From NCBI GenBank assembly GCA_015232315.1, contig JADFZZ010000003.1, forward strand, positions 156,732 to 220,731: 64,000 bases of DNA, written 5' to 3'. The notes beneath the pieces were generated by a model that was given only the letters and a program-made list of their open reading frames with translations, was not told where the DNA came from and searched no databases. The number at the start of each line of letters is the position of its first letter. Position 1 is the first letter of the stretch. The translations under genes were made by a program, and so were the position numbers. This DNA is from SAR324 cluster bacterium (GTDB lineage Bacteria > SAR324 > NAC60-12). This document shows positions 35,134-56,925 of the stretch, in pieces.

Positions 35134-35281
35134 CAATGTCATCAACTCTGAATGGTGCTGAGCATTAATTCCCCCTTGGTTTAAGGGGGATAGGGGGATG
35201 TAATTCTGAGTGTTAAATCCCCCATACCCCCTTTGTAAAGGGGGATTATCCAGCGAAGAATTTTTTAAGTTGACGACATTG
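35134..35281 (-). repeat. MITE-like element, family 1 (~150 bp), with flanking direct repeat
   Basis: Termini are caatgtcatcaac / gttgacgacattg. The core carries hairpins cccccttggtttaaggggg and ccccctttgtaaaggggg. GGGCTCTCATA occurs at 35123-35133 and again at 35281-35291. Confidence 0.85.
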
Positions 35282-35400
35282 GGCTCTCATAGCCCGATGT
35301 GTTCGGAGGAACTCCGTATAAAAATAACAAAGACCGAATCAGAACGCATGCCATTGAGTGTCTGGTTCGTACAAAAAACAATCGTTAATGTGGAGAAACC

Positions 35401-36063
35401 ATGGCAAATAAAAAGAAAATAGAGGTTGATGTTGATTTTTCAGATACCCTCAGTTTTTACCTGCATTCCGGATTGAAGACAGCGCAGAAAATTTCTGATG
35501 CGTCGATTGAGTGGTATCGGAACATTTTTTCTCTCGAAAATGAGGAAAAAACTGATTATTTTTATGCCAAAGGAATTGATCACGCAAAGAAAGGAAAATA
35601 CGCAAAGGCGATTCCCTTACTAAGCGCAGTCCATCAGGGCATGCCCCAGGATGCTGAGGTATTACACTATCTTGGACTATCCTATCTGAAAACAGGTGAA
35701 GAAGAGAAGGGACTCGCCTGTTTGGAAAAAGTGACAAAAATTGAAGGAACCCATACAAAAACAATGATCCTGCTTGGTTTGCTCTATAGCAAAAAGAAGG
35801 ACTATGAAAAAGCGGTCGCGGTTCTTGAAAATGCGGTTGCCTATGAAAAAAAGGATCCCGCGCTGTATTATCGCCTGGGGTTTGCGTATGATAATCTGAA
35901 AAAACATGACAAGGCCATTCAATGTTTTGAAAAAGCACTTGATCTGGATCCCGACAATGTCAATGTTTGCCAGGCTCTTGGACTTGCGCATGAGTCTCAG
36001 GGAAATCGGGACGAGGCCGTTGCGTATTTCAAGAAAGCCCTGGAAATGGAAGAGAAAGTGTGA
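35401..36063 (+). CDS. mamA: MamA (TPR protein)
   Basis: 220 aa. Consecutive TPR units (AEVLHYLGLSYLKTGEEEKGLACLEKV..., ALYYRLGFAYDNLKKHDKAIQCFEKAL..., NVCQALGLAHESQGNRDEAVAYFKKAL). It follows mamO, as in mamAB operons. Confidence 0.8.
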   Translation: MANKKKIEVDVDFSDTLSFYLHSGLKTAQKISDASIEWYRNIFSLENEEKTDYFYAKGIDHAKKGKYAKAIPLLSAVHQGMPQDAEVLHYLGLSYLKTGEEEKGLACLEKVTKIEGTHTKTMILLGLLYSKKKDYEKAVAVLENAVAYEKKDPALYYRLGFAYDNLKKHDKAIQCFEKALDLDPDNVNVCQALGLAHESQGNRDEAVAYFKKALEMEEKV

Positions 36064-36069
36064 GGCCCT

Positions 36070-36813
36070 ATGGGGGATGAAACCACAATTGACAGGGAAC
36101 AAGAGGAACGAATACGCCGCACAAGAGAACTGGCGGAGCGTTTGTTTCAGGATGAAATCAACCCCAAAAAAGCATCCCGCAAGAAAAAACAAGGTCCTAT
36201 CGTTTTAATTTATTTCATAGGATTTATTGTTTTTGCGATTTCAGTCTTATACCGTGTCAATATGTTCATTAGTTTGGAAGAAGAAGTTTTTGCCTCGGTG
36301 GGACAGATTGATGTCGCGTTGCAAAGACGAATGAATTTATTTGAGAATATTGTGAACACAACACTCAATCAAGGGATTCTGGAATATAAAATTGTTAAAA
36401 ATGTCGCGGATTCCCGTGCGGGTTTTGCTCAAAATTCTGAACTCAGTGGTGTGGTTGACAACCTGGAAAATCTGGAGGCTCTTAAATCCTCACTCGAGGG
36501 GGCTTCTTTTTCCAAACTGATTGCGCTGATGGAACAATATCCGGAAATAAAATTTTCAGACAACTATTCCCGGTTGATCAACAACCTGGTTGATCTGGAA
36601 GATCTCCTGCTTAGAAAACGAGATGCCCGAATTGAACAAATCCGCATTTACAATACCGCGATTACCACGTTTCCTTCAACGTTTCTCGCAAAAATAACAG
36701 GGTTTAAGCGCTATGAATATTTCGAAATGGAGCTACAGTCCCTCCATAACGTGCCAATGTTGAAACCAACTATGTTTAAGCGACTTTTACCTGAATCCAG
36801 GAAGAGCCCATGA
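36070..36813 (+). CDS. mamQ: MamQ (LemA family), copy 2
   Basis: 247 aa. LemA core (LQRRMNLFENIVN...YPEIKFSDNY...RIEQIRIYNTAITTFPSTF). Colinear with copy 1. Confidence 0.88.
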   Translation: MGDETTIDREQEERIRRTRELAERLFQDEINPKKASRKKKQGPIVLIYFIGFIVFAISVLYRVNMFISLEEEVFASVGQIDVALQRRMNLFENIVNTTLNQGILEYKIVKNVADSRAGFAQNSELSGVVDNLENLEALKSSLEGASFSKLIALMEQYPEIKFSDNYSRLINNLVDLEDLLLRKRDARIEQIRIYNTAITTFPSTFLAKITGFKRYEYFEMELQSLHNVPMLKPTMFKRLLPESRKSP

Positions 36814-37676
36814 GATTTGAAGCCTGTAAACAATGCCGAACTGAACAGGGGATCCACTCCTTTTTAGTCAATCTGTTCATGGCCCTTTTTAAAGGGGTGC
36901 TGGGTGTTTTAACCGGAAGCGCGGCGCTGGTCGCTGACGGGTTGCATTCTTCAGCCGATGTGATCGCCACCAGTGTGACCATGGTCAGCGTTTGGATATC
37001 CGGAAAACCGGCAAGTAAATCCTATGCGTATGGCTATGGAAATATTCAGTTTATTTCCGCGGCAATTGTTGGAATGATCCTGTTGTTAGGTGCGCTTTAC
37101 TTATTTGTAAACGCCACCATCAACATCGTCAGTGGTCTCATCGAAAGCCCCAATATGCTGGCCGTGATTGGCGCCATCGTTTCTATCACCATGAATCAGT
37201 TATTGTTCCATTATCAAAAGTGTGTCGGGCAGGAAAACAACAGTCCGGCAATCATGTCCAATGCCTGGGACAATCGTTCGGATGCGCTTTCCTCAGCGGC
37301 GGTGTTGTTTGGAATCATTGTGGCTGTTTTAGGTTTTCCGATCGCGGATCCCTTGGCGGCTATCGCTGTTTCACTCGTAATCGTCAAGATCGCTGTTGAA
37401 CTTCTTATCGATGCGGTCAATGGATTGATGGATCATTCACCAGATATCACTGAATTGCATGAAGTTTATCGTGTTGCTGAAAGCATTGAAGGGGTTCGTG
37501 GTATTTCATCCCTTAAAATGAGACGTCATGGTGAAATAACACTGGTTGATATTGGAATCAAAGTTCCCCCGGATATGAGAGTTTATGAAGGCGATTTAAT
37601 TGCTCTGGCGGTGAAGGTAAAAGTTTCCAAATCCATGGAGCATGAAACGGACGTTCAAGTTTTTGTAGGAGTTTGA
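36810..37676 (+). CDS. mamB: MamB (CDF family)
   Basis: 288 aa. The N-terminus MRFEACKQCRTEQ, TM2 LVADGLHSSAD (His/Asp) and TM5 WDNRSDALSS (Asp/Asp) match my recollection of MamB. ATGA overlap with the mamQ-2 stop. Confidence 0.88.
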   Translation: MRFEACKQCRTEQGIHSFLVNLFMALFKGVLGVLTGSAALVADGLHSSADVIATSVTMVSVWISGKPASKSYAYGYGNIQFISAAIVGMILLLGALYLFVNATINIVSGLIESPNMLAVIGAIVSITMNQLLFHYQKCVGQENNSPAIMSNAWDNRSDALSSAAVLFGIIVAVLGFPIADPLAAIAVSLVIVKIAVELLIDAVNGLMDHSPDITELHEVYRVAESIEGVRGISSLKMRRHGEITLVDIGIKVPPDMRVYEGDLIALAVKVKVSKSMEHETDVQVFVGV

Positions 37677-37677
37677 A

Positions 37678-38256
37678 ATGAGGCCAAAAGAGTTTTCAGT
37701 TCCCATGGGAATTGTTGTGCTGATTGTTATATCGATTCTCGCGATTGGTTATAATAATAAATTAACCAAAGAAAATTCATTGCCGCCAACCGACCCGAAT
37801 CAGCAGGATCTGACTCAATCGACACTACATCCAGCAGTTCAAGGGGTTCCGCAAACACCTGATATCCCAGTGCAGATGGCTCCACAAACTCAGTCAACGA
37901 TTCCTACTCAAGTTCCCTTGAAAGCAGCTCCAACAAGGTTCAGAGATCCCCTCATAGTGACGTTCAGCGGGACTATTACGGCTGCGCATGAAATTGTTGA
38001 TCAAGGTGGGATGACGCATATGTTTATTCAAAATGACATGGGTCTGGAACAGGAAATATCTGTGGCACCAGCATGGTATCTTGTATTCATTGGTTGCCCT
38101 TTAGCCACTGGAACGTATGTCGATGGGAAAGGTTTTGTTTTCGATAGAATGGATGGTGACGCGTCGATTTACGCGAAAAAAATTCGCCTGGCAACAGGAG
38201 TTTGTCGATTCCGCAATGATGAAGGATTTGCGCTTTGGTCTGATCGGTTGAGATAG
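37678..38256 (+). CDS. Single-pass membrane protein at the mamS position (possible MamS-like)
   Basis: 192 aa: N-terminal TM, Pro/Gln-rich linker, and a C-terminal globular part ...VAPAWYLVFIGCPLATGTYVDGKGFVFDR...CRFRNDEGFALWSD. Tightly coupled to mamB (1-nt spacer). Homology to MamS could not be verified here. Confidence 0.6.
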   Translation: MRPKEFSVPMGIVVLIVISILAIGYNNKLTKENSLPPTDPNQQDLTQSTLHPAVQGVPQTPDIPVQMAPQTQSTIPTQVPLKAAPTRFRDPLIVTFSGTITAAHEIVDQGGMTHMFIQNDMGLEQEISVAPAWYLVFIGCPLATGTYVDGKGFVFDRMDGDASIYAKKIRLATGVCRFRNDEGFALWSDRLR

Positions 38257-38280
38257 CAGGGCTGTTCCGTTCTCTGGTAG

Positions 38281-38300
38281 GACGGGACTACGTGCCCGTC
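38281..38300 (+). terminator. Weak hairpin downstream of mam module 2
   Basis: gacggg-actacgtg-cccgtc (6-bp stem), with a T-run 12 nt later. It could equally be a REP-like repeat. Confidence 0.25.
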
Positions 38301-38336
38301 AAACATACGATTTTTGGTGTTGGCGGGGCCTGTAAT

Positions 38337-38494
38337 CCAATGTCGTCAACTTAAGAAATTTTTCGCTGGGAAATCCCCCTTTACAAAGGGGGCCAGGGGG
38401 ATTTAACGCTCAGAATGACATCCCCCTAACCCCCTTGAACCAAGGGGGAATGGAGACACAGGACCATTCAAAATGCTTAAGTTGACGACATTGG
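38337..38494 (+). repeat. MITE-like element, family 1, with a perfect 19-bp TIR
   Basis: ccaatgtcgtcaacttaag ... cttaagttgacgacattgg. The core carries ccccctttacaaaggggg and cccccttgaaccaaggggg. Imperfect flanking duplication GCCTGTAATCC / GCATGTAATCC. Confidence 0.9.
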
Positions 38495-38679
38495 CATGTA
38501 ATCCCCGCCTACCATCCGGTTGACGCTCAAAATAAGGAGAAATGAACAGCCCTGACTGGATACCTGCCTTCGCAGGTAGGACATTGAAGGGCAAACTGTA
38601 AACTAAAATGCAGTCTTTTTGAGAAGAAAAATTAAAACAGATTGGGGAAAAAGCGTTCTCTGTTTTGGGGCATTTTTAG

Positions 38680-39531
38680 CTAAATGAAATGCGTTGACAG
38701 ACTCTCGATCGCATCAGAATCTTTCATGATATATTCAATCAACGATAACAGATAAACAATCTCCCTGCTCATCTCTTTCATCTCAGAATAATACCATTCC
38801 GCCTGCTGATCCTCGTTTTTCCTGAGAGCCTCCACCGTATTTTGGGCCACTTCATGAAAAAACACATGCAACTCATCCAGTTTTTTAATCTCTTGGATTG
38901 AATTGTAATGTTGTGCTTGGAGATTTTTAGTCCAAAACCCGAGATCGCACTCAGTTGCTGTTGCCAGCGATGTGTGTCGTCCTCGATTTTTGAAGGCGGA
39001 AGGCATATTTTCTGTCCATTGCACATGCTTCAATCGCACATGACTGACCTGAAGTGGACTACCAAGGTTCTGTTCCGGATCACGCTGAGTCTTGGTGTTC
39101 ATGAGATAATCCAGCAAAGAACTCAAGGGATGCGACATCTTTTCCTGGCGCTCCTGCATTTGCGTTGAGGCAAGTTCCAATTCTGTCAAAAGATAGATAA
39201 TCTCCCGACTTACTTCAGTCAGACTTTCCAGCTTCAGATTGATTTCCTCCGTGGTTTTATCCGTCCGGTTTGACATAAGTTCGGAAACTTTGTCATGAAA
39301 CTGAGTATGAACAGAATCCAGCCGTTGAACCGCGTCAAACTGATGAAACTTTTTCAATCCTGAAGCCTTCAACCATAAACCCAAATCGCATTCCATATGG
39401 TTATCGACAGGAGAAAGTGTCTCCTCATTTGTCAGTGCCTGTTTCAAATCAAACATCCATTTCAAATGCAGGATTCTGGCAATATTCACATCGAGAGTTT
39501 CACTATTTTTTCGCATAGACCGATTCTCCAT
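38680..39531 (-). CDS. Stand-alone protein with two tandem CZB (chemoreceptor zinc-binding) domains
   Basis: Two complete CZB signatures: HLKW...CDLGLW...HTQFH and HVQW...CDLGFW...HVFFH. Each is followed by a helical segment containing REI(I/V)YLL. Confidence 0.8.
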   Translation of the reverse strand: MENRSMRKNSETLDVNIARILHLKWMFDLKQALTNEETLSPVDNHMECDLGLWLKASGLKKFHQFDAVQRLDSVHTQFHDKVSELMSNRTDKTTEEINLKLESLTEVSREIIYLLTELELASTQMQERQEKMSHPLSSLLDYLMNTKTQRDPEQNLGSPLQVSHVRLKHVQWTENMPSAFKNRGRHTSLATATECDLGFWTKNLQAQHYNSIQEIKKLDELHVFFHEVAQNTVEALRKNEDQQAEWYYSEMKEMSREIVYLLSLIEYIMKDSDAIESLSTHFI

Positions 39532-39739
39532 TCAACTTCACAAAAGTAATTTCAAAATTTCCCTGAGATTCTCACAACCGGGCTATGGCCCACAACTGCT
39601 TTCCCATACACTCATAAATTTTCATAATCAAGAGTAGTTTTTATCTCAGTTCAATTGACTTATTCCTGATGATCTTATATGTGAAGCTGGTGATCTGATT
39701 GTTAACAATTTTGCATTAATTTATGAACGTGAACCAAAC

Positions 39740-41161
39740 ATGGGACTCTTGATGGAAAAACAACCGGTTCTATTAATCATAGATGATGAGCCAGACCTTT
39801 GGGAGACGATCAAAAACGCTCTCAAGCGGGAAGCCTATGAACTGGTATTTGCTCAAAATGGAAAGCAGGGTCTTGAGCTTTTTCATGAAAGAACTCCCAG
39901 CCTCATTCTATTGGATTTACGCATGCCGGGCATGAACGGCCTGGAGTTTCTGCAAACCATCAAACCAGAACCCTCTGATCCATATTTTGTTTATGTTTTG
40001 ACAGGACATGGAAACAATGAAGATGTTAAAGCTTGTTATGCGGCAGGAGCTCACGGGTTTTTACGTAAACCTTTCAACATCCATGAGCTTCGTGGAGTCT
40101 TGAAACGAAGCATTCAGCTCATTAAAAACAGGGAATTAAGTTCTAACAACAAAGATGCTTACGTCGATTTTATTGTAAACAGCTCCAACTGTCGTACACC
40201 GGAACAATTAACTGAAACCTTCTTCGAAGCTGTCAAACGCCTTTATTTTGAAAACTGGGGTTCACTCAACGTTTCAATCCTTACCAGGAATGAGGGGAGC
40301 GTTTTTGGACTTTCAGACCAAACCTCAGTTGTGAAAGATGGTGCCGCACTTGAGCGGACAGACTTAAATTCTGTCACGAACCTGAGTGCCTTGGAACAGA
40401 AAATATTAAAAAAAACATTGAATGAATATACGGTTGAAACCAAAGAAGGTCAGGCAAAGGATGCACCCACAGTCCATGCCGCCTGGGCAATTTTCTGGGA
40501 ACTGGAGGGGGATCCTGCTGATTCAAGTGGGCTGGCGGTCCTCATACGCAATTATCCATCGCTTGAATGTTCTGATGAAACTCAGTTGGCAACGAGGAAA
40601 AATATCAGGGAAGACATTGAGAATGCTGTGGCCAAGATGCTTGAACGGGTTTCTGAAGTTATGGAAAAACTCAACACCCAAAGAAAGCTGAAAGAAACCA
40701 ATGCTTTGCTGGAAAAACAAAAAACCGAACTTGAACATGAACGGGAAACAACTAAAAAGATTGTGCTTTTCTCTGTGCAGGAATTTCAGGTCATCTTTGA
40801 GGACAGCAATGACAATCAGGAAAAACAGATGGAACTTTGGGAAAACGCGCTCGCCTCTGTTAAAGAATCCTTCAATAAAGCCCTTGAGGCCACTGAAAAT
40901 ACGGTTAGAAGTCGAAATCAACAAATTTCAATGTGGAGGGATTCTGTGGATCAAGTGACCCGGTCCTTCACACAGGCAATGTCCTGTTTCACCGAATTGC
41001 AACCCGGCCAGCAGACCTTTCTGACGAATCTGAATAAACTGAAATCCCTTTACAGTGACACGGATTTGAATGAAAAACTAACACCCGGACAAATGAGTCA
41101 TACCGACGTGTCGGGCCAACAGGAAAACGTTGATGACCTGCTGGCCTCCTTAGGCTTGTGA
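39740..41161 (+). CDS. Response-regulator receiver protein with unknown central domain, coiled coil and CheZ-type C-terminal peptide
   Basis: 473 aa. REC with IIDDE, LLDLRMP, LTGHG, FLRKP. The C-terminus ...SGQQENVDDLLASLGL resembles the CheZ C-terminal CheY-binding peptide (...QDQVDDLLDSLGF). Confidence 0.8.
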   Translation: MGLLMEKQPVLLIIDDEPDLWETIKNALKREAYELVFAQNGKQGLELFHERTPSLILLDLRMPGMNGLEFLQTIKPEPSDPYFVYVLTGHGNNEDVKACYAAGAHGFLRKPFNIHELRGVLKRSIQLIKNRELSSNNKDAYVDFIVNSSNCRTPEQLTETFFEAVKRLYFENWGSLNVSILTRNEGSVFGLSDQTSVVKDGAALERTDLNSVTNLSALEQKILKKTLNEYTVETKEGQAKDAPTVHAAWAIFWELEGDPADSSGLAVLIRNYPSLECSDETQLATRKNIREDIENAVAKMLERVSEVMEKLNTQRKLKETNALLEKQKTELEHERETTKKIVLFSVQEFQVIFEDSNDNQEKQMELWENALASVKESFNKALEATENTVRSRNQQISMWRDSVDQVTRSFTQAMSCFTELQPGQQTFLTNLNKLKSLYSDTDLNEKLTPGQMSHTDVSGQQENVDDLLASLGL

Positions 41162-41187
41162 AACTCAGCGTCCGGAAACCCGATCAA

Positions 41188-41376
41188 AAGTTTCCACCTG
41201 TGCAGGTGGTTTGAAAATGAGCCACCAAGAACGCTAAGAACACGAAAAAAAGGTTTTTTATATAAATGAAGTCCTCCGTGAAACCCTGATTTTCAAGTTT
41301 TCCGGTGTATATTCCCTTTTTTACTTTGTGTTCTTCGTGTACTTCGTGGCTGAAAAAGTACCTGCACAGCTCGATG
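41188..41376 (-). repeat. MITE-like palindromic element, family 2, copy 3 (inverted)
   Basis: Its reverse complement is near-identical to 25139-25325. Track ORF 41184-41441 merely reads through it. Confidence 0.85.
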
Positions 41377-41425
41377 TTATTTATTGAACGTTTCTTAGCC
41401 GGATAATACATCTTCAGAAAATAAA

Positions 41426-43693
41426 ATGAAAAAACTGCCACTCATTTTGATCATTGACGATGAAACCGATATTTGGGATGTGATTTCGCACGCCCTCAAA
41501 CGGGAGTCTGTTGAGTTGATCTTCGCGAAAAACGGGAAGGAAGGCCTGGAACTTTTTTATGAACGGAAGCCCCTTGTGGTGCTTCTTGATCTGCGCATGC
41601 CTGTCATGAACGGAATGCGCTTTCTGGAAACGCTCCAACCCAAACATTCAGACCCTTATTCTGTGCTGGTTTTAACCGGTCATGGGGACGATGAAGAAGT
41701 AAAAATCTGTTACCAATCGGGCGTTCATGGATTTCTGCGTAAACCAATCAATGTGTTTGAACTTCGTGGACTGCTCCTGCAGACGATTGAACTGAAACAG
41801 GCACAGGTTGATTTAAAAAATCAGTTTGAACAACTCCGGCAACTCCAGCTTGAGAAAGATCAGGAATCGCATCGGTTAGCCGATGAACAAGACATTTCCG
41901 GTTTTTTCAGCTCTGTGTTTTATCTGTTTGTTCTGGCCAACCTGGAAGAACGGTCGGTGGATGAAATTCTCGAATCCGCTGAAGACTTTTTAAAAAATGA
42001 GATGAAGCTCGATGTCGTATTGATGCTGGACTCCGAAAAATCTAACAGTGTTTTTCAGGAAGGAGAACAGGAGCTTTTGCTAAGGGCTGTCATTTCCGGA
42101 GAATCCATCACTCGTCTGGAACAGGCCTTCATCTGCTATGTCCCGCCGTTGGCTGTTCTGGTGAGAGATCAAGTCAATATTGATCAGGATAAAATTCAGA
42201 CTTTCGTTTCAGCGGCCGCGTCACGACTGCTCTTCGCCATTGCGGAAGAAAACAAACGTATCATGAACAGAATCCTGGAAGAGGCCATTTTCATGGTCAA
42301 TTCCAGGGGGAAAATCGAGCCGGGTTTCAGTGATGTGTGTTTATCCATGTTTCAAATCAAAGATCGGGAGCAGTTTATTGAAATGCTTCCCGGTGAATTG
42401 TTGTTCGGGAAAAACGCTAAAGCGGAACAATTCTTTGAATGGCTTCAGTTATGTTATAACAGTTTTCTGGATTTTGATGATTTGGTGGCTGTTCAACCCT
42501 CTGAACTTCTTACTGAAGAGGGCAGATGCTTAAGTTTGAAAATGAGTCCGGTCTATAATAATGATCGACAACTGCATTTCATTTTGTTCAAATTGACTGA
42601 CATCACTGAACAAAAACTTCAACGTGCCAAAGTCACGGAAGAGGAAGAACACAATGCGATGATCATCAAAGTCGCCTCCGATCAGGAAGGCTTTCTCCAG
42701 TTACTGGATGAGGTGGAGATGTTATTTCTGGAAATTTACGGGGAATTGAGCCTGCCTGAGGAGGAACTCAATATCCAGAAACTGTTTCGCTATTTTCACA
42801 CTCTCAAAGGCGGAACAGCCAGTTACGGCATGAAACGTGTCGCCGCCGCGTTCCATGAACTTGAAAATCAACTGACCCTCTTTCAGGATTCCTTTCAGTC
42901 TATTGATCTAATATTCATTTCCCAAATGCTCAACAACACCAACGAAGTTCAGGCGCTTTACAACCAGACCCTGGAATACCTCAACGCCTTTATCCCTCAG
43001 GCTCCCGGCAAATCCCGCGAAAAAAACTATAAGGTTTCTGAATTAAAAGTTAAAAAGGTTGAAGAGGCCGCCGCCAGAATTCTGCCGATTCCCCTGTTAC
43101 AACCGATACTGATCGAAGTGGATCGTTTGCGGATGGAACCGATTGGCTCACGCTTCAAAAGACTGGTCTTCATGGTGGAAGAACTTTCCACCCGTTTCAA
43201 TAAACTGGTGGAAGTCAAACTTGTCGGGACAGACCTCGAAGTTCATATAGAGCCCCTGAGATACTTTTTGGGAACCCTGGTCCATTTGATCCGGAATTGT
43301 GTGGATCATGGGATTGAAGAACCGGAAACGAGAATCCGCAACGGTAAACCCGAAACCGGCACAATCACCATTAAAACCTTTAAAGAAGGAAATCTCTTAA
43401 AAATTTCGATTGCGGATGATGGAAAAGGGATTGATGTCAGAACCCTTGCGAGAATCGCTCTGGAAAAAAAGTTGATGAACGAAGAAGCCCTCGAAGCCGC
43501 CACAGAACAGGACTTGCTACAACTCATTTTCGCAGCTGGTTTTTCTACAAAAGAGGAAATTTCGGATATTTCCGGACGTGGTGTGGGAATGGGCGCCATC
43601 AAGAGCGCTGTGGAGGCTCTGCGAGGGTCCATCAGCATCATCAGCACGTTGGGCGAAGGAACAACCTTCGAAATTGCTATCCCCCATTTTTAA
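41426..43693 (+). CDS. REC - GAF/PAS-like - HPt - CheA-type ATPase kinase lacking a CheW-like domain
   Basis: 755 aa. REC (IIDDE, LLDLRMP, LTGHG, FLRKP). HPt motif FHTLKGGTASYG. CheA P4-type boxes HLIRNCVDHGIE, DDGKGID, GRGVGM, GEGTTFEIAIP. The protein ends 3 aa later. Confidence 0.85.
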   Translation: MKKLPLILIIDDETDIWDVISHALKRESVELIFAKNGKEGLELFYERKPLVVLLDLRMPVMNGMRFLETLQPKHSDPYSVLVLTGHGDDEEVKICYQSGVHGFLRKPINVFELRGLLLQTIELKQAQVDLKNQFEQLRQLQLEKDQESHRLADEQDISGFFSSVFYLFVLANLEERSVDEILESAEDFLKNEMKLDVVLMLDSEKSNSVFQEGEQELLLRAVISGESITRLEQAFICYVPPLAVLVRDQVNIDQDKIQTFVSAAASRLLFAIAEENKRIMNRILEEAIFMVNSRGKIEPGFSDVCLSMFQIKDREQFIEMLPGELLFGKNAKAEQFFEWLQLCYNSFLDFDDLVAVQPSELLTEEGRCLSLKMSPVYNNDRQLHFILFKLTDITEQKLQRAKVTEEEEHNAMIIKVASDQEGFLQLLDEVEMLFLEIYGELSLPEEELNIQKLFRYFHTLKGGTASYGMKRVAAAFHELENQLTLFQDSFQSIDLIFISQMLNNTNEVQALYNQTLEYLNAFIPQAPGKSREKNYKVSELKVKKVEEAAARILPIPLLQPILIEVDRLRMEPIGSRFKRLVFMVEELSTRFNKLVEVKLVGTDLEVHIEPLRYFLGTLVHLIRNCVDHGIEEPETRIRNGKPETGTITIKTFKEGNLLKISIADDGKGIDVRTLARIALEKKLMNEEALEAATEQDLLQLIFAAGFSTKEEISDISGRGVGMGAIKSAVEALRGSISIISTLGEGTTFEIAIPHF

Positions 43694-43703
43694 TCAGGAA
43701 AAG

Positions 43704-46031
43704 ATGGAACATCTGGAAAAACTGAAAATTCTGGTACTCGATGATGAAACCGATCTCTGGGAAACCATTCAGGATGCTTTGAAACGGGAACCTTATGAAT
43801 TACACTTTGCCAAAAATGGCAGGGAAGGGTTAGAGCGTTTTTATGAAGTGAAACCCATCGCTGTCCTGCTTGACTTACGCATGCCCGTCATGGACGGTTT
43901 CGCCTTTCTGGACAAGCTTCGTCCAAACCGGGAAGATCCGTATTTTGTTCTTGTCCTCTCGGGTCATGGGGATGATGACGATGTGAAAGCCGCTTATCAG
44001 TTGGGCGCGCAGGGATTCCTTCGCAAGCCGTTCAATGTGTTTGAACTCCGGGGAATCCTCAAACAAAATATTGACTTAAAACAAACGCAAAACCATTCAA
44101 AACAGGAATTACAGCGTCTCTATCAGGAACAATTACAGGAAGCCGCCCGCCTGAAAGCCGAGCAGGAAATATCGGCCTTTTTCAGTTCGGTGTTCTATTT
44201 TGTGCTGGAAAATCTCGAGGAGAGGTCCCCTGAAGAAATATTGGCCTCCATTGAAAGTTTCCTGCGGGATGAAATGCGTCTGGATGTCGCGGTAATTCTG
44301 GATTCCCGACAACAACTGAACAGCTTCAATACCGTGGAAAAAGAACTACTGCTCAATGCGGAAGCGGAAGGAGAACTGATTTTTCGGGAAGGCGGTTATC
44401 TCATCTGCCTGATACGCCCCCTGTATGTCCTGATCAGAAATCCGCCGGATGATTTCGACCAGGACAAACTCCACACCTTTGTTTCTACCGCGGCGTCACG
44501 CCTGGGTTTCGCGATTGCCCAGGACAGCAAACGGATCATGCATGAGGTGTTTGAAGAAGCCGTACTCTTGATCAACAGTCTCGGAGAGATTGAACCCGGC
44601 TTCACTGATATTTGTTTGAAGTTGTTCCATATTGCCGATAAGGCCACGTTTCTGCAAACAACACCGGGAACCCTGATGTATGGAAACACCCCTGACGCGG
44701 AACACTTTCAGGAATGGATTCGCTTATGTTTTGAGGGGGCGCTGGATTTTTCGGACATGCGTGCGTTGCAACCGACAGAAATGAAATCCCCGGACCACAA
44801 AATTCTGGAGATAGAGATGATCCCTATCCGTGATAAGGATCAGAGTTTGAAATTTATATTGATAAAATTTAAAGACGTCACCGCCTTGCGTGAACAGCAG
44901 GTTGAACTTGAACACCAGCAACATGTGCAGTTAGCAACCCTGAAAGTCATCAAAAATCGATCAGCATTCCTGAATTATTATCGCCTGGTGATGGATAGTT
45001 TTTCCAGTCAGGACGCAATCTTATCGGTTCCGCATACTGATCTGATTCGTTCGTTACATACCGCAAAAGGGATGTCAGGTGTCTTTTACCTGAAAGGCAT
45101 CCAGCAAAAATGTCATGATGCCGAAACCCTGTTAAAACTTGAACCGACACTTTCACCGGGAAGTTCTGTGATCGAATTGATCCAATCCATTGCTGACTGG
45201 CTTCAGGATTTCATCAACAAAGAGGTTTTACACTGGGTTCTGGGGGAAGATGACCGGTCCTTCACCGTTGACAAAAACTGGTTTTTACATATCCAGCGTC
45301 AGTTTCAGGTTCAAACGGATTTCACGCAGAACAGGGTTCAGCATCTTCTGCGGCAAATCACCTTCATCCCGTTGATATCTCTGTTCAAGCATTTTGAAAC
45401 GGTTCTGCAGGATTTGGCAGTGGCTCGGGGTAAAAGTCTGTACCCTCTCATGATCAATGACGATTCCGGCATTTTTGTACCACCGAAGGTATTGGATAAC
45501 TTAATAAACTCCATGAGTCATCTCTTTCGCAATGCGGTCGATCATGGCATAGAAACCACTGAGACCAGGACCATGCTGGATAAAAATGAAATGGGTCGTA
45601 TTGATCTTCATTTAGAAAGTGATGCGACTCACCTGATCATCCGGGTTTCAGATGATGGACAAGGCATTGATCAAAACAAACTGTTGAAGCATGCCGTCTC
45701 AAAAAACCTGATTTCGGCTGAAAAAGCCACAACGCTGAACAACGATGAAATCCGGCATCTGGTTTTTTGGGATGGCCTATCCACAAAAGAAGAAGTTGAT
45801 CTGGTGAGCGGTCGAGGTGTCGGGATGAGTGATGTGAGAGCCTCATGCAGGGAACTTGGCGGCACCATTGATTATCAAACCGGGATTGGTAAAGGAACCA
45901 TCTGGACCATCGCTCTGCCCCTGGAACGTATTTATGGCGAACTGGTTCCGCCTGAATACTATGCGTTGAACATTGTTGAATCTGTCCCTGAAAAGTCGGG
46001 GGTTGGTCCTGTTTTCTGTCACAAATTGTAG
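43704..46031 (+). CDS. REC - GAF/PAS-like - HPt - CheA-type ATPase kinase (paralogue of 41426-43693)
   Basis: ATG 43704 follows AGGAAAAG. 775 aa. Same REC signatures, HPt LHTAKGMSGVF, ATPase boxes HLFRNAVDHGIE, DDGQGID, GRGVGM, GKGTIWTIALP. No P5-like domain. Confidence 0.85.
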   Translation: MEHLEKLKILVLDDETDLWETIQDALKREPYELHFAKNGREGLERFYEVKPIAVLLDLRMPVMDGFAFLDKLRPNREDPYFVLVLSGHGDDDDVKAAYQLGAQGFLRKPFNVFELRGILKQNIDLKQTQNHSKQELQRLYQEQLQEAARLKAEQEISAFFSSVFYFVLENLEERSPEEILASIESFLRDEMRLDVAVILDSRQQLNSFNTVEKELLLNAEAEGELIFREGGYLICLIRPLYVLIRNPPDDFDQDKLHTFVSTAASRLGFAIAQDSKRIMHEVFEEAVLLINSLGEIEPGFTDICLKLFHIADKATFLQTTPGTLMYGNTPDAEHFQEWIRLCFEGALDFSDMRALQPTEMKSPDHKILEIEMIPIRDKDQSLKFILIKFKDVTALREQQVELEHQQHVQLATLKVIKNRSAFLNYYRLVMDSFSSQDAILSVPHTDLIRSLHTAKGMSGVFYLKGIQQKCHDAETLLKLEPTLSPGSSVIELIQSIADWLQDFINKEVLHWVLGEDDRSFTVDKNWFLHIQRQFQVQTDFTQNRVQHLLRQITFIPLISLFKHFETVLQDLAVARGKSLYPLMINDDSGIFVPPKVLDNLINSMSHLFRNAVDHGIETTETRTMLDKNEMGRIDLHLESDATHLIIRVSDDGQGIDQNKLLKHAVSKNLISAEKATTLNNDEIRHLVFWDGLSTKEEVDLVSGRGVGMSDVRASCRELGGTIDYQTGIGKGTIWTIALPLERIYGELVPPEYYALNIVESVPEKSGVGPVFCHKL

Positions 46032-46058
46032 GGGCGAACCTGTGTGTTCGAACTGATA

Positions 46059-46346
46059 CCAATGTCGTCAACTTAAGGCGTTCTTCGCCGTGGAATCCCC
46101 TTTTCAAAGGGGTCATGGGGGATTTAAAGCTCAGAATAACATCCCACTAACCCCCTTGAACCAAGGGGAATTGGTGCCAGCGCCTTCACAATGTCGTCAA
46201 CTTAAGGCGTTCTTCGCCGTGGAATCCCCCTTTTCAAAGGGGTCATGGGGGATTTAAAGCTCAGAATAACATCCCCCGCCCCAGCACCCTTAAACCAAGG
46301 GGGAATTGGTGCCAGCACCTTCACAGGGCTTAACTTAACAGACGTG
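46059..46346 (+). repeat. Two head-to-tail family-1 MITE copies (46059-46188 truncated, 46189-46346 complete)
   Basis: Both begin caatgtcgtcaacttaaggcgttcttcgccgtggaatcccc. Only the second has a right end, and it is of the other subtype (cttaacttaacagacgtg). Confidence 0.85.
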
Positions 46347-46628
46347 GACGAGACGTCAGGAACCAGAGTAGTGTTAAAAAACTTTTGATCGGGTACTTAC
46401 CATCCGGTTGACGCTAAGGAACATTCGAAAAATAAAACAGATAAATTCTCCGAACAATATTTCCTGTCGGGCACACGTAGAGACGCGCTATAGCACGTCT
46501 CTACAGACCAGAACAGGAGAGACTGGATTGGAAAATGTTTACAACTTATTCTTTTGCCGTTCCTAAAATCATAAGAACAACCCCGGGTGTACTGTCGGCG
46601 CAATCCGTTTCATTAAAAGGTTTCAAAC

Positions 46629-49508
46629 ATGCTGCATATAGGCATTATCGGTGGATCTCAAAAACAGATTGATACCTTACTGGCCATCCATAACACCAAT
46701 AAAGTCCCCTTTTTTTCCAGATCAAATGCTGTCATTTCCGTGATTGAAGCGGAGGAATCCGCAGAGGAATTGCTGATTGATGCATTGTTTTATGTGTCGC
46801 CAGTCAGTCATCTGGAACATGATTCAAAGCAGGCGAGAGCGTCCATGAAATGGATCCGGGGACTCCGGAACTACTCCTCTTATGGCGTCCGGAAAACGAT
46901 ACGAGGTTGTCACCATCTGTTGATCGGAGACATTCCACAGTATTTGAACCAGATCAAAAAAATGGATATAGATCTGTTTGTTCATTTTCAGGAGAACCCT
47001 GAATGGCAAATCGTCGACAGCATAGAACTCTTGTTCCATAAGAGGGACTTGATTGAAATGCCCGAGATCCATTCTGTGACAGATTCCTCCAAAAACACGC
47101 GTCAAGCCTCAACGAATGTCCGTATCCCTGTCAGTGAAATCGATACAGTCCGGTTTCAGGAAAACGGGGATAATGAGAAGGCGTCCTTGAACGAATCATC
47201 GCCCCGGTTTCATTCGGTGCGCCTGAAAGATCAGGAAGGAGCCCAAACGATTGCGGAACTGAAGGGTGTGGATATTCCGTTTCAAAATATCACCTCCCTG
47301 ACTTTCAAGCAAAAAGGCCAGGGCAGGATGTCCCTGCCCGTTGATTCAATCCAGGCCTTGAAATCCGGGAAACACAACGTTTGGGCGCTGGAATTATTCG
47401 AATTGTGGAAAATCCGGGAAAAAGTATGTGCTTCGGGGACATTTCAGTTACGTCTGGACGCGACAGCCTTCAAAGACCTGGTCATTGATGAGGCTTCCTA
47501 TCTGCCGATCAGATTGAATCATGCTCTTTCGCGGGTCAACCGCCGGTGTGAAGCGCAACAATGGGACAAGTACATGGAATTCCGGACCTTCAGTCTTCAG
47601 GAACGTCCTGTTTTGATCGCGCTTGACGCGGATTTGGCGGCCATCCTGGTGAAACAGATCGGGAACATCGGGTTCAAGGATGTACGGATCATTACCAATG
47701 ATGATGAACTCGGGCAGACACTGAATGAATGCCATCTCTTCAATGAAAATCAGGAGTTTTCAACCACAGTCAAGTTTCCTACCTTAATCACGACCCAGGC
47801 TCGACAAGCGCAGATTAAACAACAATATCCGGCAATCCAATGTTATGGAATTCCCGGGTTTGACCTCATTGATCCCAAAAATATCGGGCAAAACGCGGAA
47901 CGGGAACTTTTAAAAAATGAAGTCGAAAACAAGATTCAGAGTCTCCTGCAAGAGGCTGAAAACAACCCCTTGCAGACGTTTTACCTCAAAATCGTTCATC
48001 TGTTCATGATGTACCAGCTTGAGGAAAATACCACTGATATCATCGCCAAACTGCAGAAACAGACGGAACATTTTATTGGAAATTTATCCAGACTGTTTCA
48101 GGCGGAAGCCCGGAAAATTCAGGAACAGAAGAATCTAAAACTGAAAATAGAGGCTAAAATCAAAGAATTGAACGCGGAGATTACCAAATTAAACCTTGCG
48201 ATCACTGAGGCGGAACAAAAAATCAAAAAACTGGATGGAGCTTTGCAGCAAAAAAAGGCCCTGACGGATCAAATGGCTGAACAGGAACATACCGTGAATG
48301 ATCTCAAAGACCAAATCAGCGCGACAATCCTGGAACAGGAAAAACTGAAACTGGAAGTCGAGGCCGACCGTGCGGATCGTGAGCAAACTACTCTGCAACT
48401 GGAAGAACTTAAAAAAAAGTATGATGATTTGTTGTTCCAGCACGAAAAAAATAAAGTGATTTTCGGTACGCCGGAGCAGGTCGCAAGAATCAAAAAACAG
48501 ATTCAAAAATTCCCTGCACGGAAACAGTCGCTGGAGGACCAGATTGCGGCAACTCAAAATATGCTCGACACACTGTCTGTTGCGGTGAAGCAACTCAACG
48601 GAACACAAAATAAATGTGCTCAACTCGAAACGCGTCTGAAAAATGAGAAGCATACCCTGGAACAGTTATCCGAAAAAGTGGAAGTCACCATGGGAAAACA
48701 TGAACGGGCCTTGAAGGCGTTTCTGTTGCATCATGAGAAGGTTACAAGCCGTTTGAATCTGGTTCAGGAAGCCTTGAATAAACTGAACCTCCGCTATCAA
48801 AAACTCAGCACCGATCTGATGGGGCGTGAATCGGCCTACCAACAGGAAAAGAGCCATGCTGAGTCGTTTGGTCAAAAAATTCTGAACTGGATCAGAAATA
48901 TCGGGGACATCAGTGAACTGGGCGAAGGGCTTTCCACTCTGGGAAACGAGGCCGATGTGGGCTTGCGGGAAATTAAAGAACTGATTGAGATGATCAATAA
49001 ATTGATGACTCTGCGGAAAATTCAGGATGCCGACCAGTCCCTGGTAACAGATGTCATGGCGACCCTGGAGAAAAATTTCACTTTTTATCATTTGCCGCAA
49101 CTGGAACAACTGGAGGCTCCGCTCGTTTTTATCGGGGACAAGATGAATTATCCTGTTTTCACCAACAAGTTACTGTCCATGGTTCAGGCCAATGAACAAA
49201 AGGGCGTCACGTTGAACTGGGATCGGTTTGAACATACCAATGTCTCATTTTCCAAACAGATCATCCTGCTCGACCTTTCAGATCGGGCCGACGATGAAGA
49301 ACTTCATGCGAAAGTCGGTGAGTTTTGCATGCAACTGGCGTTGCAAAACTTTATGATCATCCTGTTACCTGATGAAGTTCTCTTTGACCCTAAATGGCAG
49401 GTCTTCAGAAGCATGTCACTCTGCCTTCCCGCAAAACATCTGGACACCTTTCTGGCACCGCCCTTGTTCCAATGGATGCAAAACATCCAAAAATGGAATG
49501 CGCTGTAG
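46629..49508 (+). CDS. Large coiled-coil protein, unknown function
   Basis: 959 aa. The central ~330 aa are heptad-rich (KIKELNAEITKLNLAITEAEQKIKKLDGALQQKK...). The globular N- and C-terminal parts have no recognisable catalytic motifs. Confidence 0.75.
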   Translation: MLHIGIIGGSQKQIDTLLAIHNTNKVPFFSRSNAVISVIEAEESAEELLIDALFYVSPVSHLEHDSKQARASMKWIRGLRNYSSYGVRKTIRGCHHLLIGDIPQYLNQIKKMDIDLFVHFQENPEWQIVDSIELLFHKRDLIEMPEIHSVTDSSKNTRQASTNVRIPVSEIDTVRFQENGDNEKASLNESSPRFHSVRLKDQEGAQTIAELKGVDIPFQNITSLTFKQKGQGRMSLPVDSIQALKSGKHNVWALELFELWKIREKVCASGTFQLRLDATAFKDLVIDEASYLPIRLNHALSRVNRRCEAQQWDKYMEFRTFSLQERPVLIALDADLAAILVKQIGNIGFKDVRIITNDDELGQTLNECHLFNENQEFSTTVKFPTLITTQARQAQIKQQYPAIQCYGIPGFDLIDPKNIGQNAERELLKNEVENKIQSLLQEAENNPLQTFYLKIVHLFMMYQLEENTTDIIAKLQKQTEHFIGNLSRLFQAEARKIQEQKNLKLKIEAKIKELNAEITKLNLAITEAEQKIKKLDGALQQKKALTDQMAEQEHTVNDLKDQISATILEQEKLKLEVEADRADREQTTLQLEELKKKYDDLLFQHEKNKVIFGTPEQVARIKKQIQKFPARKQSLEDQIAATQNMLDTLSVAVKQLNGTQNKCAQLETRLKNEKHTLEQLSEKVEVTMGKHERALKAFLLHHEKVTSRLNLVQEALNKLNLRYQKLSTDLMGRESAYQQEKSHAESFGQKILNWIRNIGDISELGEGLSTLGNEADVGLREIKELIEMINKLMTLRKIQDADQSLVTDVMATLEKNFTFYHLPQLEQLEAPLVFIGDKMNYPVFTNKLLSMVQANEQKGVTLNWDRFEHTNVSFSKQIILLDLSDRADDEELHAKVGEFCMQLALQNFMIILLPDEVLFDPKWQVFRSMSLCLPAKHLDTFLAPPLFQWMQNIQKWNAL

Positions 49509-49819
49509 ACCCCTCATTTTCCTCCATTGTAATTAATTTTTTTCCTCCCGGCTAAAATAGATTTTTTGGCATGGTCTTTGTTATATTCTGTCCTGAAGGT
49601 CAGATGTTGTCCTGAATCTCATATCCTGTATTGCTTTTATGCAATAAAACAGGTTATAGCTAACATGATGTGTTCCGGGTTTCTGATTCCCGATGTTTTG
49701 TAAAAACCTCATCGAACCAGTCCTGATCACATCACAAACGCAGGAGACAGACTCCACGTATTGAGCATTCTTCAACTGGAATGCGGAAATATTGAATAAC
49801 CTTTTGCAATAAAAACGAT

Positions 49820-50185
49820 ATGTCCAAGAAAGCTTTGGTAATGGATGATTCACCGATTATCCGGAAAATGTTGACACATGGCCTGACCCGTTCGTTTGGC
49901 TTTGAGGTCATTGAAGCCGAAAATGGTCAGGATGGATTGACAAAGACCTCCCAACACGAGTTTGATTTGATTTTTTCCGATATCAATATGCCGGTCATGA
50001 CGGGGGTAGAATTTCTTGAAAAGTTCCGTAGCACCAACACCACAACCCCGGTGTTCATGCTTACCTCGGAAAAAGAAGATGTTTACAAACAAAAATGTCT
50101 GGATTTAGGAGCAACCGATTTTTTCAAAAAGCCGTTCAAACCAAATACCATCGAAGCCGCGTTGAAACAACTTCTGGAGGGGTGA
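49820..50185 (+). CDS. cheY: Single-domain response regulator, CheY-like
   Basis: 121 aa. VMDDS, FSDINMP (acceptor Asp), MLTSE (Thr), FFKKP (Lys). Confidence 0.85.
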   Translation: MSKKALVMDDSPIIRKMLTHGLTRSFGFEVIEAENGQDGLTKTSQHEFDLIFSDINMPVMTGVEFLEKFRSTNTTTPVFMLTSEKEDVYKQKCLDLGATDFFKKPFKPNTIEAALKQLLEG

Positions 50186-50233
50186 TCAGGCTGATTCATC
50201 AATTGCCAGACTTCTGGTTCCCATGCTCTGCGT

Positions 50234-50388
50234 CAAGGCTGTTAAGTTAAGAAATTACCTGCGAGAAAATCCCCCTTTTCAAAGGGGGCATGGGGGATTT
50301 AACGCTCAGAGTTACATCCCCCTAACCCCCCTTAAACCAAGGGGGAATTGGTGCCAGTGACTTCACAGGGCTTAACTTAACAGACGTG
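50234..50388 (+). repeat. MITE-like element, family 1, flanked by an 11-bp direct repeat
   Basis: Termini are caaggctgttaagttaag / cttaacttaacagacgtg. ATGCTCTGCGT occurs at 50223-50233 and 50389-50399. Confidence 0.9.
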
Positions 50389-50414
50389 ATGCTCTGCGTG
50401 GGAACCTCCGGGGG

Positions 50415-50566
50415 CAATGTCGTCAACTTAAGGCGTTCTGCGCCGGGGAAGCCCTCTTTTCAAAGGGGGCTTGGAGGATTTAACGCTCAGAATTACATCC
50501 CCCTAACCCCCTTGAAACAAGGGGGAATTGAAACACAGCACCATTCAGAATGCTTAACTTCTAACA
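50415..50566 (+). repeat. MITE-like element, family 1, with a degenerate right end
   Basis: It starts caatgtcgtcaacttaaggcg, has a conserved core, and its right terminus is decayed (cttaacttctaacacc). It lies 26 bp after the previous copy. Confidence 0.8.
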
Positions 50567-50577
50567 CCTGAAAACAA

Positions 50578-54591: not shown

Positions 54592-54891
54592 ATGCTACCC
54601 ACTACTGAAAAAAAAAATGACCGTATTACAGCACGAGTGCCTACAGATATACGCGAACGTCTGATAGAAGCCGCAGCGTTTTCTGGAGCGACCCTGAACC
54701 AGTTTTTAATCCAGGCCGCAATTGAAAAGGCCAACACAATCCTTGAAAAAGAACGGATCATCCATCTCTCTTATCATGATGCGGAAGTATTTTTTAAGGC
54801 ACTGGAAAATCCCCCCAAGCCCAATCAACGTTTACGGAAAGCCATAACAAAATATAAAGATTCAGGCCTCTATGAACCCGTTCAAGATTGA
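54592..54891 (+). CDS. Type II antitoxin, DUF1778 / TacA-like (RHH)
   Basis: 99 aa. RITARVPTDIRERLIEAAAFSGATLNQFLIQAAIEKA. Overlaps the downstream GNAT gene by 20 nt. Confidence 0.85.
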   Translation: MLPTTEKKNDRITARVPTDIRERLIEAAAFSGATLNQFLIQAAIEKANTILEKERIIHLSYHDAEVFFKALENPPKPNQRLRKAITKYKDSGLYEPVQD

Positions 54892-55375: not shown

Positions 55376-55415
55376 ACAATCGCAATTGTTCGAGAAAGCC
55401 AACAGGGAAAACGCA

Positions 55416-56856: not shown

Positions 56857-56925
56857 TACGTCCCGTGGTTCCTAACCAGAAAGTTTTCCCTGTTATTTTT
56901 TGAACGTTCCTAACAGTTGTTTCCT

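Follow-up and report, generated by a model that had tools for sequence, protein, structure and literature searches.

A domain-mosaic signalling locus in a SAR324 bacterium: CheA-type kinases without P5 and a receiver protein with a CheZ-type tail

Introduction

What kind of history places three genes with closely similar heads side by side on one strand? The question is raised by positions 39740-46031 of a stretch of 64,000 nucleotides from a SAR324 cluster bacterium (GCA_015232315.1, contig JADFZZ010000003.1, positions 156,732 to 220,731), which is referred to here as the window. The three consecutive genes, here named M1, M2 and M3, all open with a receiver (REC) domain, and M2 and M3 continue into an HPt domain and an ATPase domain of the CheA type. 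A first-pass annotation of the window took them for the tandem triplication of one sensor gene, of which M1 had lost the kinase half. The comparisons presented here indicate that the locus is a domain mosaic and not a gene triplication, and that M1 is not a truncated kinase but belongs to a family of its own.

Results

The resemblance of the three heads is evident. The Pfam Response_reg model (PF00072) scores 99.8, 78.4 and 76.1 bits in M1, M2 and M3, respectively, against a cut-off of 30.2 (E 3e-21 for M3), pairwise identity is 57-67%, and all three heads retain the acidic pair DD, the acceptor Asp in LLDLRMP, a hydroxyl residue in VL(T/S)GHG and the Lys in LRKP. The first-pass annotation had described related receivers with intact Asp, Thr and Lys, and this stands for the relationship, the Asp and the Lys, whereas Thr occupies the hydroxyl position in M1 and M2 only and is replaced in M3 by its functional equivalent Ser (VLVLSGHG). 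At third codon positions the heads share 39-46% identity, and no identical run exceeds 16 nt. The low identity at third positions means that the similarity is old and has been maintained; recent gene conversion among the heads was considered and is ruled out by the same two figures. In the sister genome GCA_015231885.1 (comparison locus L001) the REC heads of the equivalent genes share 21-25% identity among themselves and 18-28% with the heads of the window; judged by these alignments, the likeness of the heads is specific to the lineage of the window. Heads of the same kind, which we call type A, also occur on HisKA kinases, PAS kinases and a GAF-HD protein, and other members of the M1 family carry a REC of a different clade.

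The bodies behind the heads have another history. Identity between M2 and M3 differs from part to part, being 67% in REC, 59% in the first central domain (domain A), 42% in the PAS-like domain, 19% in HPt with its linker and 34% in P4. When the kinase module of M3 was used as the query, M2 scored no better than canonical CheA. In a P4 tree (neighbour joining, midpoint rooting, with three genomes containing the kinase family), M2 is placed with canonical CheA and the metagenomic protein P0006 (bootstrap 100), M3 with the kinases of two other SAR324-type genomes (bootstrap 100), and a third kinase of the locus, the 1282-residue HEAT-REC kinase, in a separate clade. Compared with M3, the kinase bodies of the sister genome reach 48-50% identity, and the body of its M1-like protein is 45% identical to M1. 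That genome also has a tandem pair of REC kinases (L001, 4551-9167), which is a duplication of its own, both copies being of the M3 type (bootstrap 99), and is not the counterpart of the M2/M3 pair; the M2-type kinase module was found only in the organism of the window.

Outside REC, M1 has no significant similarity to M2 by BLASTP. Homology between the M1 body and the kinase central region was tried by hhalign (E 0.03, probability 1.7%), rejected as evidence and kept as a faint lead: central domain A of the kinases matches the M1-family alpha/beta domain faintly and co-linearly, with a common LA(V/I)L(V/I)RN strand and the same H-E-E-H-E-E-E order of helices (H) and strands (E). The simplest reading of these sequences is that a REC head of the M1-family kind, perhaps together with the alpha/beta domain, was joined to PAS-HPt-P4 bodies of two lineages in repeated shuffling. 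Degenerate receivers and unrelated central domains in M2 and M3, both of which the first-pass annotation had named as telling against its reading, were not found, the catalytic residues being intact and the central domains related at the identities given above. The whole-gene triplication with loss of the kinase half of M1 is nevertheless unsupported, in view of the separate family of M1, the mosaic identities and different P4 clades of M2 and M3, the divergent heads of the sister genome and the presence of type A heads on other kinds of protein.

M2 and M3 can be aligned from end to end (41% identity over 756 positions, spanning the motifs ISxFFSSVFY, NLEERS and EMxLDV) and both match Pfam Hpt and HATPase_c, which bears out the common central region and HPt-ATPase output that had been proposed for them. 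The AlphaFold2 model of M2 was built from an alignment of 21 rows and has a mean predicted local distance difference test score (pLDDT) of 76.8; its segments are listed in Table 1. On the question whether the central region is of the GAF or PAS type, part of it may be PAS-like: Pfam PAS_9 matches M2 with E 0.0046 and 17.7 bits, under the cut-off of 27, and residues 276-392 of the model have the strand and helix order of a PAS-like fold, whereas Pfam GAF is unmatched by M1, M2 and M3. Every one of the five known kinases of the family has two cysteines in this domain, which in M2 are C305 (42338-42340, motif D(V/I)CL) and C343 (42452-42454, motif ELC(F/Y)). The pair hints at thiol or redox sensing, or at covalent attachment of a cofactor.

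The HPt domain of M2 exceeds the Pfam cut-off (36.1 bits against 24.6) and that of M3 falls below it (22.8 bits). The HTAKG histidine motif is retained in all relatives, and the HPt His of H(T)xKG is conserved, together with the N, G1, F and G2 boxes, in the four kinases that were aligned. The NCBIfam CheA models match the P4 region only, with E 3e-52 in M2 and 1e-39 in M3. Foldseek was run on the whole models of M1 and M2, and its matches are dominated by REC and P4. The C-terminal part of M2 aligns with the P3P4 structure of Thermotoga maritima CheA (4XIV) over 264 columns at 34% identity (E 2e-19), and its P4 with CheA P4 structures at a template modelling (TM) score of about 0.9 and 40-43% identity. 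Pfam detected no H-kinase_dim (PF02895) in M2 or M3 at E<=0.1, although the alignment with 4XIV extends into P3 and two short helices (residues 539-568, pLDDT 36-60) are modelled before P4; these helices are called P3-like. No CheW (P5) domain was matched in M2 or M3 by Pfam at the same threshold, nor was any P2 matched. After the P4 match the chain ends within 2 residues in M2 and about 36 residues in M3. M2 and M3 are thus built of CheA parts yet fail a defining feature of that family, having no P5/CheW domain and possessing a sensor region of their own. The central region is very rare. Beyond the genome of the window and the near-identical GCA_015231535.1 it was found in two, GCA_015231885.1 and 'Deltaproteobacteria bacterium TL4' (L009); a profile scan of genome contigs added no others, and one of JGI metagenome contigs found none. 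Full-length relatives came solely from records annotated as SAR324 cluster bacteria.

M1 has a different body. Its AlphaFold2 model (pLDDT 74.7, alignment of seven sequences) consists of REC, a helix, an alpha/beta domain (residues 150-268), a long helical hairpin (276-436), a disordered linker (437-453) and a terminal helix (454-466), and the order of hairpin, linker and helix is that of CheZ. The best Foldseek matches of the model are REC-GAF fragments of a dual-sensor kinase (6OAP, 6OAQ and 6OB8; E 2e-12, about 340 columns). The terminal peptide QQENVDDLLASLGL aligns with positions 182-202 of the 203 positions of Pfam CheZ (PF04344; E 0.029, 14.7 bits, cut-off 30.7), and 6 of 31 family members match that model at E<=1, the best with E 0.0032. 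Against a CheZ profile of five annotated proteins (from E. coli, Ralstonia, Pantoea and Photobacterium, and a Cupriavidus open reading frame), hhalign aligned the last 15 residues of M1 locally, with a probability of 91.6% and E 8e-7. The coiled coil and CheZ-like end noticed in the first-pass annotation are thus recovered, the first in the model and the second in the profile alignment. No part of the family is better conserved than the tail, Q..VDDLL(A/D)SLG(L/I/M/F) (top-residue frequency 0.70, against 0.45 elsewhere), which stands at the extreme C-terminus in 33 of 45 members.

A search with the M1 body returned six SAR324-type homologues of 437-467 residues, and an exhaustive profile search of 1.84 billion representative proteins extended the family to 41 clusters at 50% identity, most of them of 420-445 residues with a REC head and a few with a PAS head. 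The M1-body profile had no match among the PDB sequences at E<=10, and the literature search returned nothing on REC-fused CheZ-like proteins; the family appears to be undescribed in Pfam, NCBIfam and the literature searched. Genes of the family adjoin P5-less CheA-type kinases in L001/L012, a multi-kinase cluster in L020 and, in L014, a HEAT-REC protein cut by the contig end. A second M1 paralogue, P0122, with a body 57% identical to that of M1, is encoded elsewhere in GCA_015231535.1 (L002, 10001-13762); its neighbours there are a gene with a STAS domain and a methyl-accepting chemoreceptor of the 4HB_MCP type. In L001/L012 and in L004/L005, too, M1-family genes are bordered by STAS genes or domains; no STAS or DUF7793 partner gene was found within the window. 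In the M1-family protein P0126 of 'Deltaproteobacteria bacterium TL4' (L007) the REC appears degenerate, with DN in place of DD, Met/Pro at the Thr position and Arg-Gly instead of Lys-Pro, and the body and CheZ-like tail are conserved despite this head; the head of some members may be a pseudo-receiver.

The public contig of GCA_015231535.1 (L003) has the same genes in the same order, and its spacer between M1 and M2 is 100% identical to that of the window. The cluster of the sister genome L001 comprises a CheY-like gene, two HEAT-REC kinases, two REC kinases and an M1-like gene. According to public gene calls M1 probably starts at 39749 or 39752, giving 470 or 469 residues. The longest open reading frame of M3 opens at a GTG inside M2 (43578); most likely the start is the ATG at 43704, 10 nt past the stop of M2, where an AGGAAA motif lies upstream and from which the 775-residue product of the public records is read. 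With this start M2 and M3 do not overlap, and the 10-nt spacer with its motif resembling a ribosome-binding site suggests that they are probably co-transcribed.

The 264-bp spacer between M1 and M2 was said to harbour a miniature inverted-repeat transposable element (MITE), and an inverted-repeat element of about 185 bp is indeed found there, one of three copies in the window; the other two are non-coding and intergenic as well. As RNA the element folds into a single long hairpin (-76 kcal/mol, z -5.3), and for this reason transcription of M1 may be uncoupled from that of M2 and M3. A second repeat family of about 130 bp, with copies 78-95% identical, occupies intergenic stretches both within the signalling cluster and at the end of the magnetosome cluster. 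A scan of 38200-50600 with Rfam found no family, and promoter and terminator scans gave nothing beyond the expectation from shuffled sequence.

Downstream of M3 lie a coiled-coil protein of 959 residues, for which no homologue was found in the scanned loci L001, L002, L004, L009, L012 and L014, the single-domain CheY-like response regulator, and the HEAT-REC kinase. The C-terminal 350 residues of the latter are HPt and P4 without P5 (29% identity to M2 over 347 residues, E 6e-29), and the protein is conserved in L001 and L009. Behind it are a TacA-like antitoxin of 99 residues, called in L003 and located in the roughly 300 bp ahead of 54872, and a GNAT acetyltransferase toxin-type gene, the two corresponding to 16367-17150 of L003; a HEAT-repeat protein and a REC-HisKA-HATPase kinase follow. 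Upstream, a gene for a protein with two CZB domains diverges from M1, beside which it also stands in L003. Directly upstream of the locus the window contains a magnetosome gene cluster (10349-38256) that includes MamE-, MamO- and MamP-like proteases. A FeoB of 666 residues is encoded 2 kb from the signalling cluster of the sister genome (L012, 13599-16360) and is very similar to the FeoB of the window (phmmer 1057 bits, against 1469 for the latter with itself); in the window, magnetosome genes separate FeoB from the signalling cluster.

Table 1. Features of the signalling locus and its surroundings (positions in the window unless residues are given; H, helix; E, strand).
Feature	Position	Strand	Description
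M1	39740-41161	+	REC, GAF-like alpha/beta domain, long helical hairpin, flexible linker, CheZ-type C-terminal peptide; maximal open reading frame 473 residues
M1 receiver	39767-40111	+	Type A head; Response_reg E 1.3e-28; 59-63% identical to M2 and M3 REC
M1 alpha/beta (GAF-like) domain	40199-40555	+	Family motif LA(V/I)L(I/V)RN.P; modelled order H-E-E-H-E-E-E
M1 helical hairpin	40577-41059	+	Modelled helices 276-380 and 385-436; motifs NQEKQMELWEN, LQPGQQTFL (DQITDQKFL in distant members)
M1 C-terminal amphipathic helix QQENVDDLLASLGL with stop	41111-41161	+	CheZ-type (candidate CheY-binding) peptide
MITE-like element	41190-41375		About 185 bp; terminal inverted repeats of 20-32 nt
MITE-like element, further copies	25140-25330, 4331-4508		94% and 93% identity
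M2	41426-43693	+	755 residues; REC, coiled coil, central alpha/beta, PAS-like, HPt (P1), P3-like helices, CheA-type P4
M2 receiver	41444-41767	+	Type A head; Response_reg E 5.8e-22
M2 central domain A	41957-42241	+	Small alpha/beta domain; FFSSVFY, NLEE, PLAVLVRD; pLDDT 46-80
M2 central domain B	42251-42601	+	PAS-like fold with C305 and C343; pLDDT 85-91
M2 HPt (P1)	42605-43000	+	Four-helix bundle; phospho-acceptor motif FHTLKGG, His458; Pfam Hpt E 7.7e-9
M2 P3-like helices and CheA-type P4	43040-43684	+	N, G1, F and G2 boxes intact
M2 model, REC	residues 1-105		AlphaFold2
M2 model, single long helix	residues 110-171		AlphaFold2
M2 model, small alpha/beta domain	residues 178-272		AlphaFold2, low confidence
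M2 model, PAS-like domain	residues 276-392		AlphaFold2, pLDDT 85-91
M2 model, helical bundle (HPt)	residues 394-525		AlphaFold2; contains FHTLKG
M2 model, two short helices	residues 539-568		AlphaFold2, pLDDT 36-60
M2 model, P4	residues 570-753		AlphaFold2
M3	43704-46031	+	775 residues, architecture as M2; REC 43728-44054, HATPase_c 45513-45926
Repeat of about 130 bp, after M3	46060-46190, 46189-46325		Tandem, right after M3
Repeat of about 130 bp, before HEAT-REC kinase	50268-50388, 50415-50552
Repeat of about 130 bp, other copies	56738-56860, 58211-58334, 38337-38486, 35146-35282
Protein with two CZB domains	38680-39531	-	Zinc-binding chemoreceptor-type domains
Coiled-coil protein	46629-49508	+	959 residues; no family assignment
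CheY-like response regulator	49820-50185	+	Single domain; 73% identical to sister-genome counterpart; most conserved REC of the cluster
HEAT-REC-HPt-P4 kinase	50578-54426	+	1282 residues; third P5-less CheA-type kinase of the locus
GNAT toxin-type gene	54872-55375
HEAT-repeat protein	55386-56642		418 residues
REC-HisKA-HATPase kinase	56917-58050
FeoB	12053-14053	-
Cation-diffusion facilitators	10349-11338, 14323-14946, 32320-33222, 36810-37676
Actin-like, MamK-type	15709-17265	-
Actin-like, MamK-type	30865-32067
ParA-like	17234-18016	-
MamE-like	18559-20091
MamE-like	25941-28679		Trypsin, three magnetochrome, PDZ
Magnetochrome proteins	20363-21118, 22005-22472
LemA/MamQ-like	21217-21987, 36070-36813
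MamO-like	33225-35072
MamA-like, TPR	35401-36063
MamS-like	37678-38256		Last magnetosome gene

Discussion

The architecture of these proteins encourages us to ask what the locus does. We regard as moderately probable that it encodes a modular CheA-type phosphorelay that is independent of chemoreceptors and arose through the shuffling of domains rather than the triplication of a gene. M2 and M3 would be soluble sensor kinases whose CheA core (P1/HPt, P3-like helices and P4) has lost the P5/CheW-like coupling to arrays and the CheY-docking P2, and in which an N-terminal receiver, a coiled-coil spine, the small alpha/beta domain and the PAS-like domain with its two cysteines would serve as replacement inputs. 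One upstream phosphodonor could set M1, M2 and M3 together, since the three heads belong to one REC subfamily, and the cysteines of the PAS-like domain would provide a second, possibly redox, input. In M2, M3 and the HEAT-REC kinase the HPt His would be the site of autophosphorylation, and from there the phosphate would pass to the single-domain CheY-like protein, which is a candidate for the shared output and for the partner of the M1 tail. The tail would bind phosphorylated CheY (CheY~P), leading to its dephosphorylation, as by CheZ, or to sequestration or localisation. A near-invariant tail fits a well-conserved partner, because the CheY-like protein is 73% identical between the two genomes, whereas the REC heads are 18-28% identical. 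These phosphotransfer steps, the target of the tail and the phosphatase activity are what we infer, and they stand beside the domain content, the intact motifs, the mosaic ancestry and the conservation of the tail as observed.

Several observations weigh against this reading. The model of M2 is of low confidence in the P3-like region and in central domain A, and the organism is known from metagenome bins alone. By NCBIfam the CheY-like protein is a generic single-domain REC (61.6 bits, against a CheY cut-off of 189), and the tail of M1 could bind another REC, its own included. M1-family genes also occur away from such kinases, beside STAS proteins or alone. The CheZ signature MAQDFQDLTGQ, whose catalytic Asp/Gln stretch reads QDFQDLTGQ in the five CheZ proteins aligned, is absent from M1, the family having DQITDQKFL (LQPGQQTFL in SAR324) and YQxMKExQM instead; the Pfam CheZ score of M1 is far under the threshold, with the tail as the sole aligned part; and hhalign found no local alignment between the M1 hairpin and CheZ, a global run giving no credible column confidence beyond the tail. 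A manual alignment of DQITDQ with QDLTGQ, suggestive for the Gln only, was not used as evidence. Because the active-site motif of CheZ was not detected and only the tail aligns, a phosphatase activity of M1 is a guess: the protein shares, as far as its sequence and model tell, the layout and the CheY-recognition peptide of CheZ, yet it is not demonstrably a CheZ.

M1 could also be an adaptor or an autoinhibited switch and no phosphatase, its tail binding a REC surface (its own, that of M2 or M3, or that of CheY) for localisation or sequestration, perhaps with a link to partner switching through STAS proteins. The undetected catalytic motif, the STAS-domain genes beside M1-family genes in three other contexts and the GAF-like domain, which suggests control by a ligand, are in agreement with such a role. 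On the other hand, the hairpin has near-invariant Q359 and E364, joined in most members by Q421, on its helices, which are also the site of the catalytic Gln in CheZ, and the window has no STAS gene; we consider this role possible, although somewhat doubtful.

Whether the N-terminal receivers act as inputs is a related question. Regulation of M2 and M3 through REC is a reasonable proposal; a REC fused to CheA is, however, often a phosphate sink and not an input (PMC10782961), and a sink role is an equally standard reading of the heads. They would then be sinks or intramolecular relay stations, exchanging phosphate with HPt in either direction, shortening the lifetime of the signal and receiving no external regulation. 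Such a role is a common and experimentally supported one for CheY-like domains fused to CheA (PMC10782961), and it is compatible with the intact catalytic residues of all three heads and with the presence of HPt and REC in one polypeptide. Three points make it unlikely in our opinion: the continuous helix modelled at residues 110-171 joins REC to the sensor domains as in 6OAP, a geometry that suits conformational control; the CheZ-like M1 is present in the locus, whereas the surveyed genomes with a single REC-bearing CheA mostly have no phosphatases (PMC10782961); and M1, though it has no HPt, bears the same head, which speaks for a donor outside the protein.

It can further be asked if the cluster serves the magnetosome island as a dedicated sensory module, controlling magnetotaxis or magnetosome formation, and is not a general signalling system. 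The locus starts 400-1500 bp past the last magnetosome gene, the cluster of the sister genome lies 2 kb from a close homologue of the island-linked FeoB, and, of the three genomes that have the kinase family, at least two belong to the JADG... assembly series, which is assumed to be that of the survey of magnetotactic bacteria (PMC7602337). However, the adjacency is seen in one genome only, there are no mam genes on the sister contig, and M1-family members are also met in surroundings that are clearly unrelated. The paper of Lin et al. 2020 (PMC7602337), which described magnetotactic SAR324 bins, makes no mention of the kinases of this locus, its genes go unmentioned in the papers on magnetosome clusters that were consulted, and our literature search found nothing on kinases beside SAR324 magnetosome clusters; a dedicated module is quite improbable. 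Least probable of these is the tandem triplication of a single ancestral REC-sensor-kinase gene, with later loss of the kinase half and gain of a coiled coil in M1, for although the genes are adjacent, on one strand, alike in their heads and faintly co-linear between the M1-family alpha/beta domain and central domain A, the M1 body has full-length homologues of its own (26-57% identity) in genomes and contexts without such kinases and no significant similarity to M2, the kinase modules of M2 and M3 fall in different P4 clades, and in the sister genome the heads of this gene set are unrelated.

Returning to the mosaic phosphorelay, its meaning can be viewed from two sides. On the one hand, CheA is defined as a sensorless kinase that depends on receptors through its CheW-like domain, and the three kinases of this locus break both rules; the locus is a clear case of signalling proteins made by exchanging heads, sensors and kinase cores. 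On the other hand, if M1 is a receiver-controlled analogue of CheZ, removal of CheY~P would here be regulated and not constitutive, and CheZ-type chemistry, or at least the recognition of CheY, would extend well past the beta- and gammaproteobacteria. The widest proposal would be that the M1 family is an unrecognised class of signal-regulated CheY~P phosphatases or CheY~P-binding effectors which, together with the P5-less self-sensing CheA-type kinases, forms a receptor-independent taxis pathway at the magnetosome island of magnetotactic SAR324; we put it forward as a speculative idea that is probably too broad. The position beside the magnetosome cluster makes the locus a concrete candidate for the coupling of sensing and motility in an uncultured magnetotactic lineage.

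Comparison with known systems

The kinases are closest to class II CheA (HPK9; T. maritima 4XIV, 1B3Q and 1I58), with which M2 and M3 share the HPt domain with its HxxKG His, helices modelled as P3-like before P4, and a P4 that is 34-43% identical to that of T. maritima at a TM score of about 0.9. They differ from CheA in having no P5/CheW-like domain and no P2, and in having alpha/beta and PAS-like sensors of their own and an N-terminal REC. In a survey of 13,673 CheA proteins, Hpt, H-kinase_dim, HATPase_c and CheW were present in all, CheA was without a sensor domain and REC, where present, was mostly C-terminal (PMC10782961).

CheZ is the CheY~P phosphatase of beta- and gammaproteobacteria, with the signature residues Asp143 and Gln147 in E. 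coli numbering. M1 resembles it in the terminal Q..VDDLL(A/D)SLG(F/L/I), which is identical in nine of ten positions to the Cupriavidus and Ralstonia tails (VDDLLASLGF), and in the position of this tail behind a flexible linker and a long helical hairpin. Unlike CheZ, M1 is about twice as long, begins with REC and a GAF-like domain, has no MAQDFQDLTGQ, and its hairpin cannot be aligned. The front half of M1 has its likeness in the fragments 6OAP, 6OAQ and 6OB8, where an N-terminal REC, a helix, a GAF-type domain and a further helix follow each other; the same layout is predicted for the head of M2. The identity to these fragments is 17-18%, the crystallised parts have no CheZ-like hairpin, and the full protein has, by its name, a histidine-kinase output, presumably of the HisKA type and with a bilin-binding GAF domain, whereas no cofactor-binding motif is evident in the GAF-like domain of M1.

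A further relative is the uncharacterised metagenomic protein P0006 (1248 residues), which shares with M2 a module made of the end of PAS, HPt, the P3-like helices and P4 (30% identity over 414 residues, E 1e-41) and likewise has no P5. It differs from M2 in its Fe-hydrogenase-like and Fe-S N-terminal domains and PAS, in the absence of a REC head and in a fused CheX-like domain. P0006 looks like an input of the sensory-hydrogenase type fused to a CheA-type kinase and a CheY phosphatase domain.

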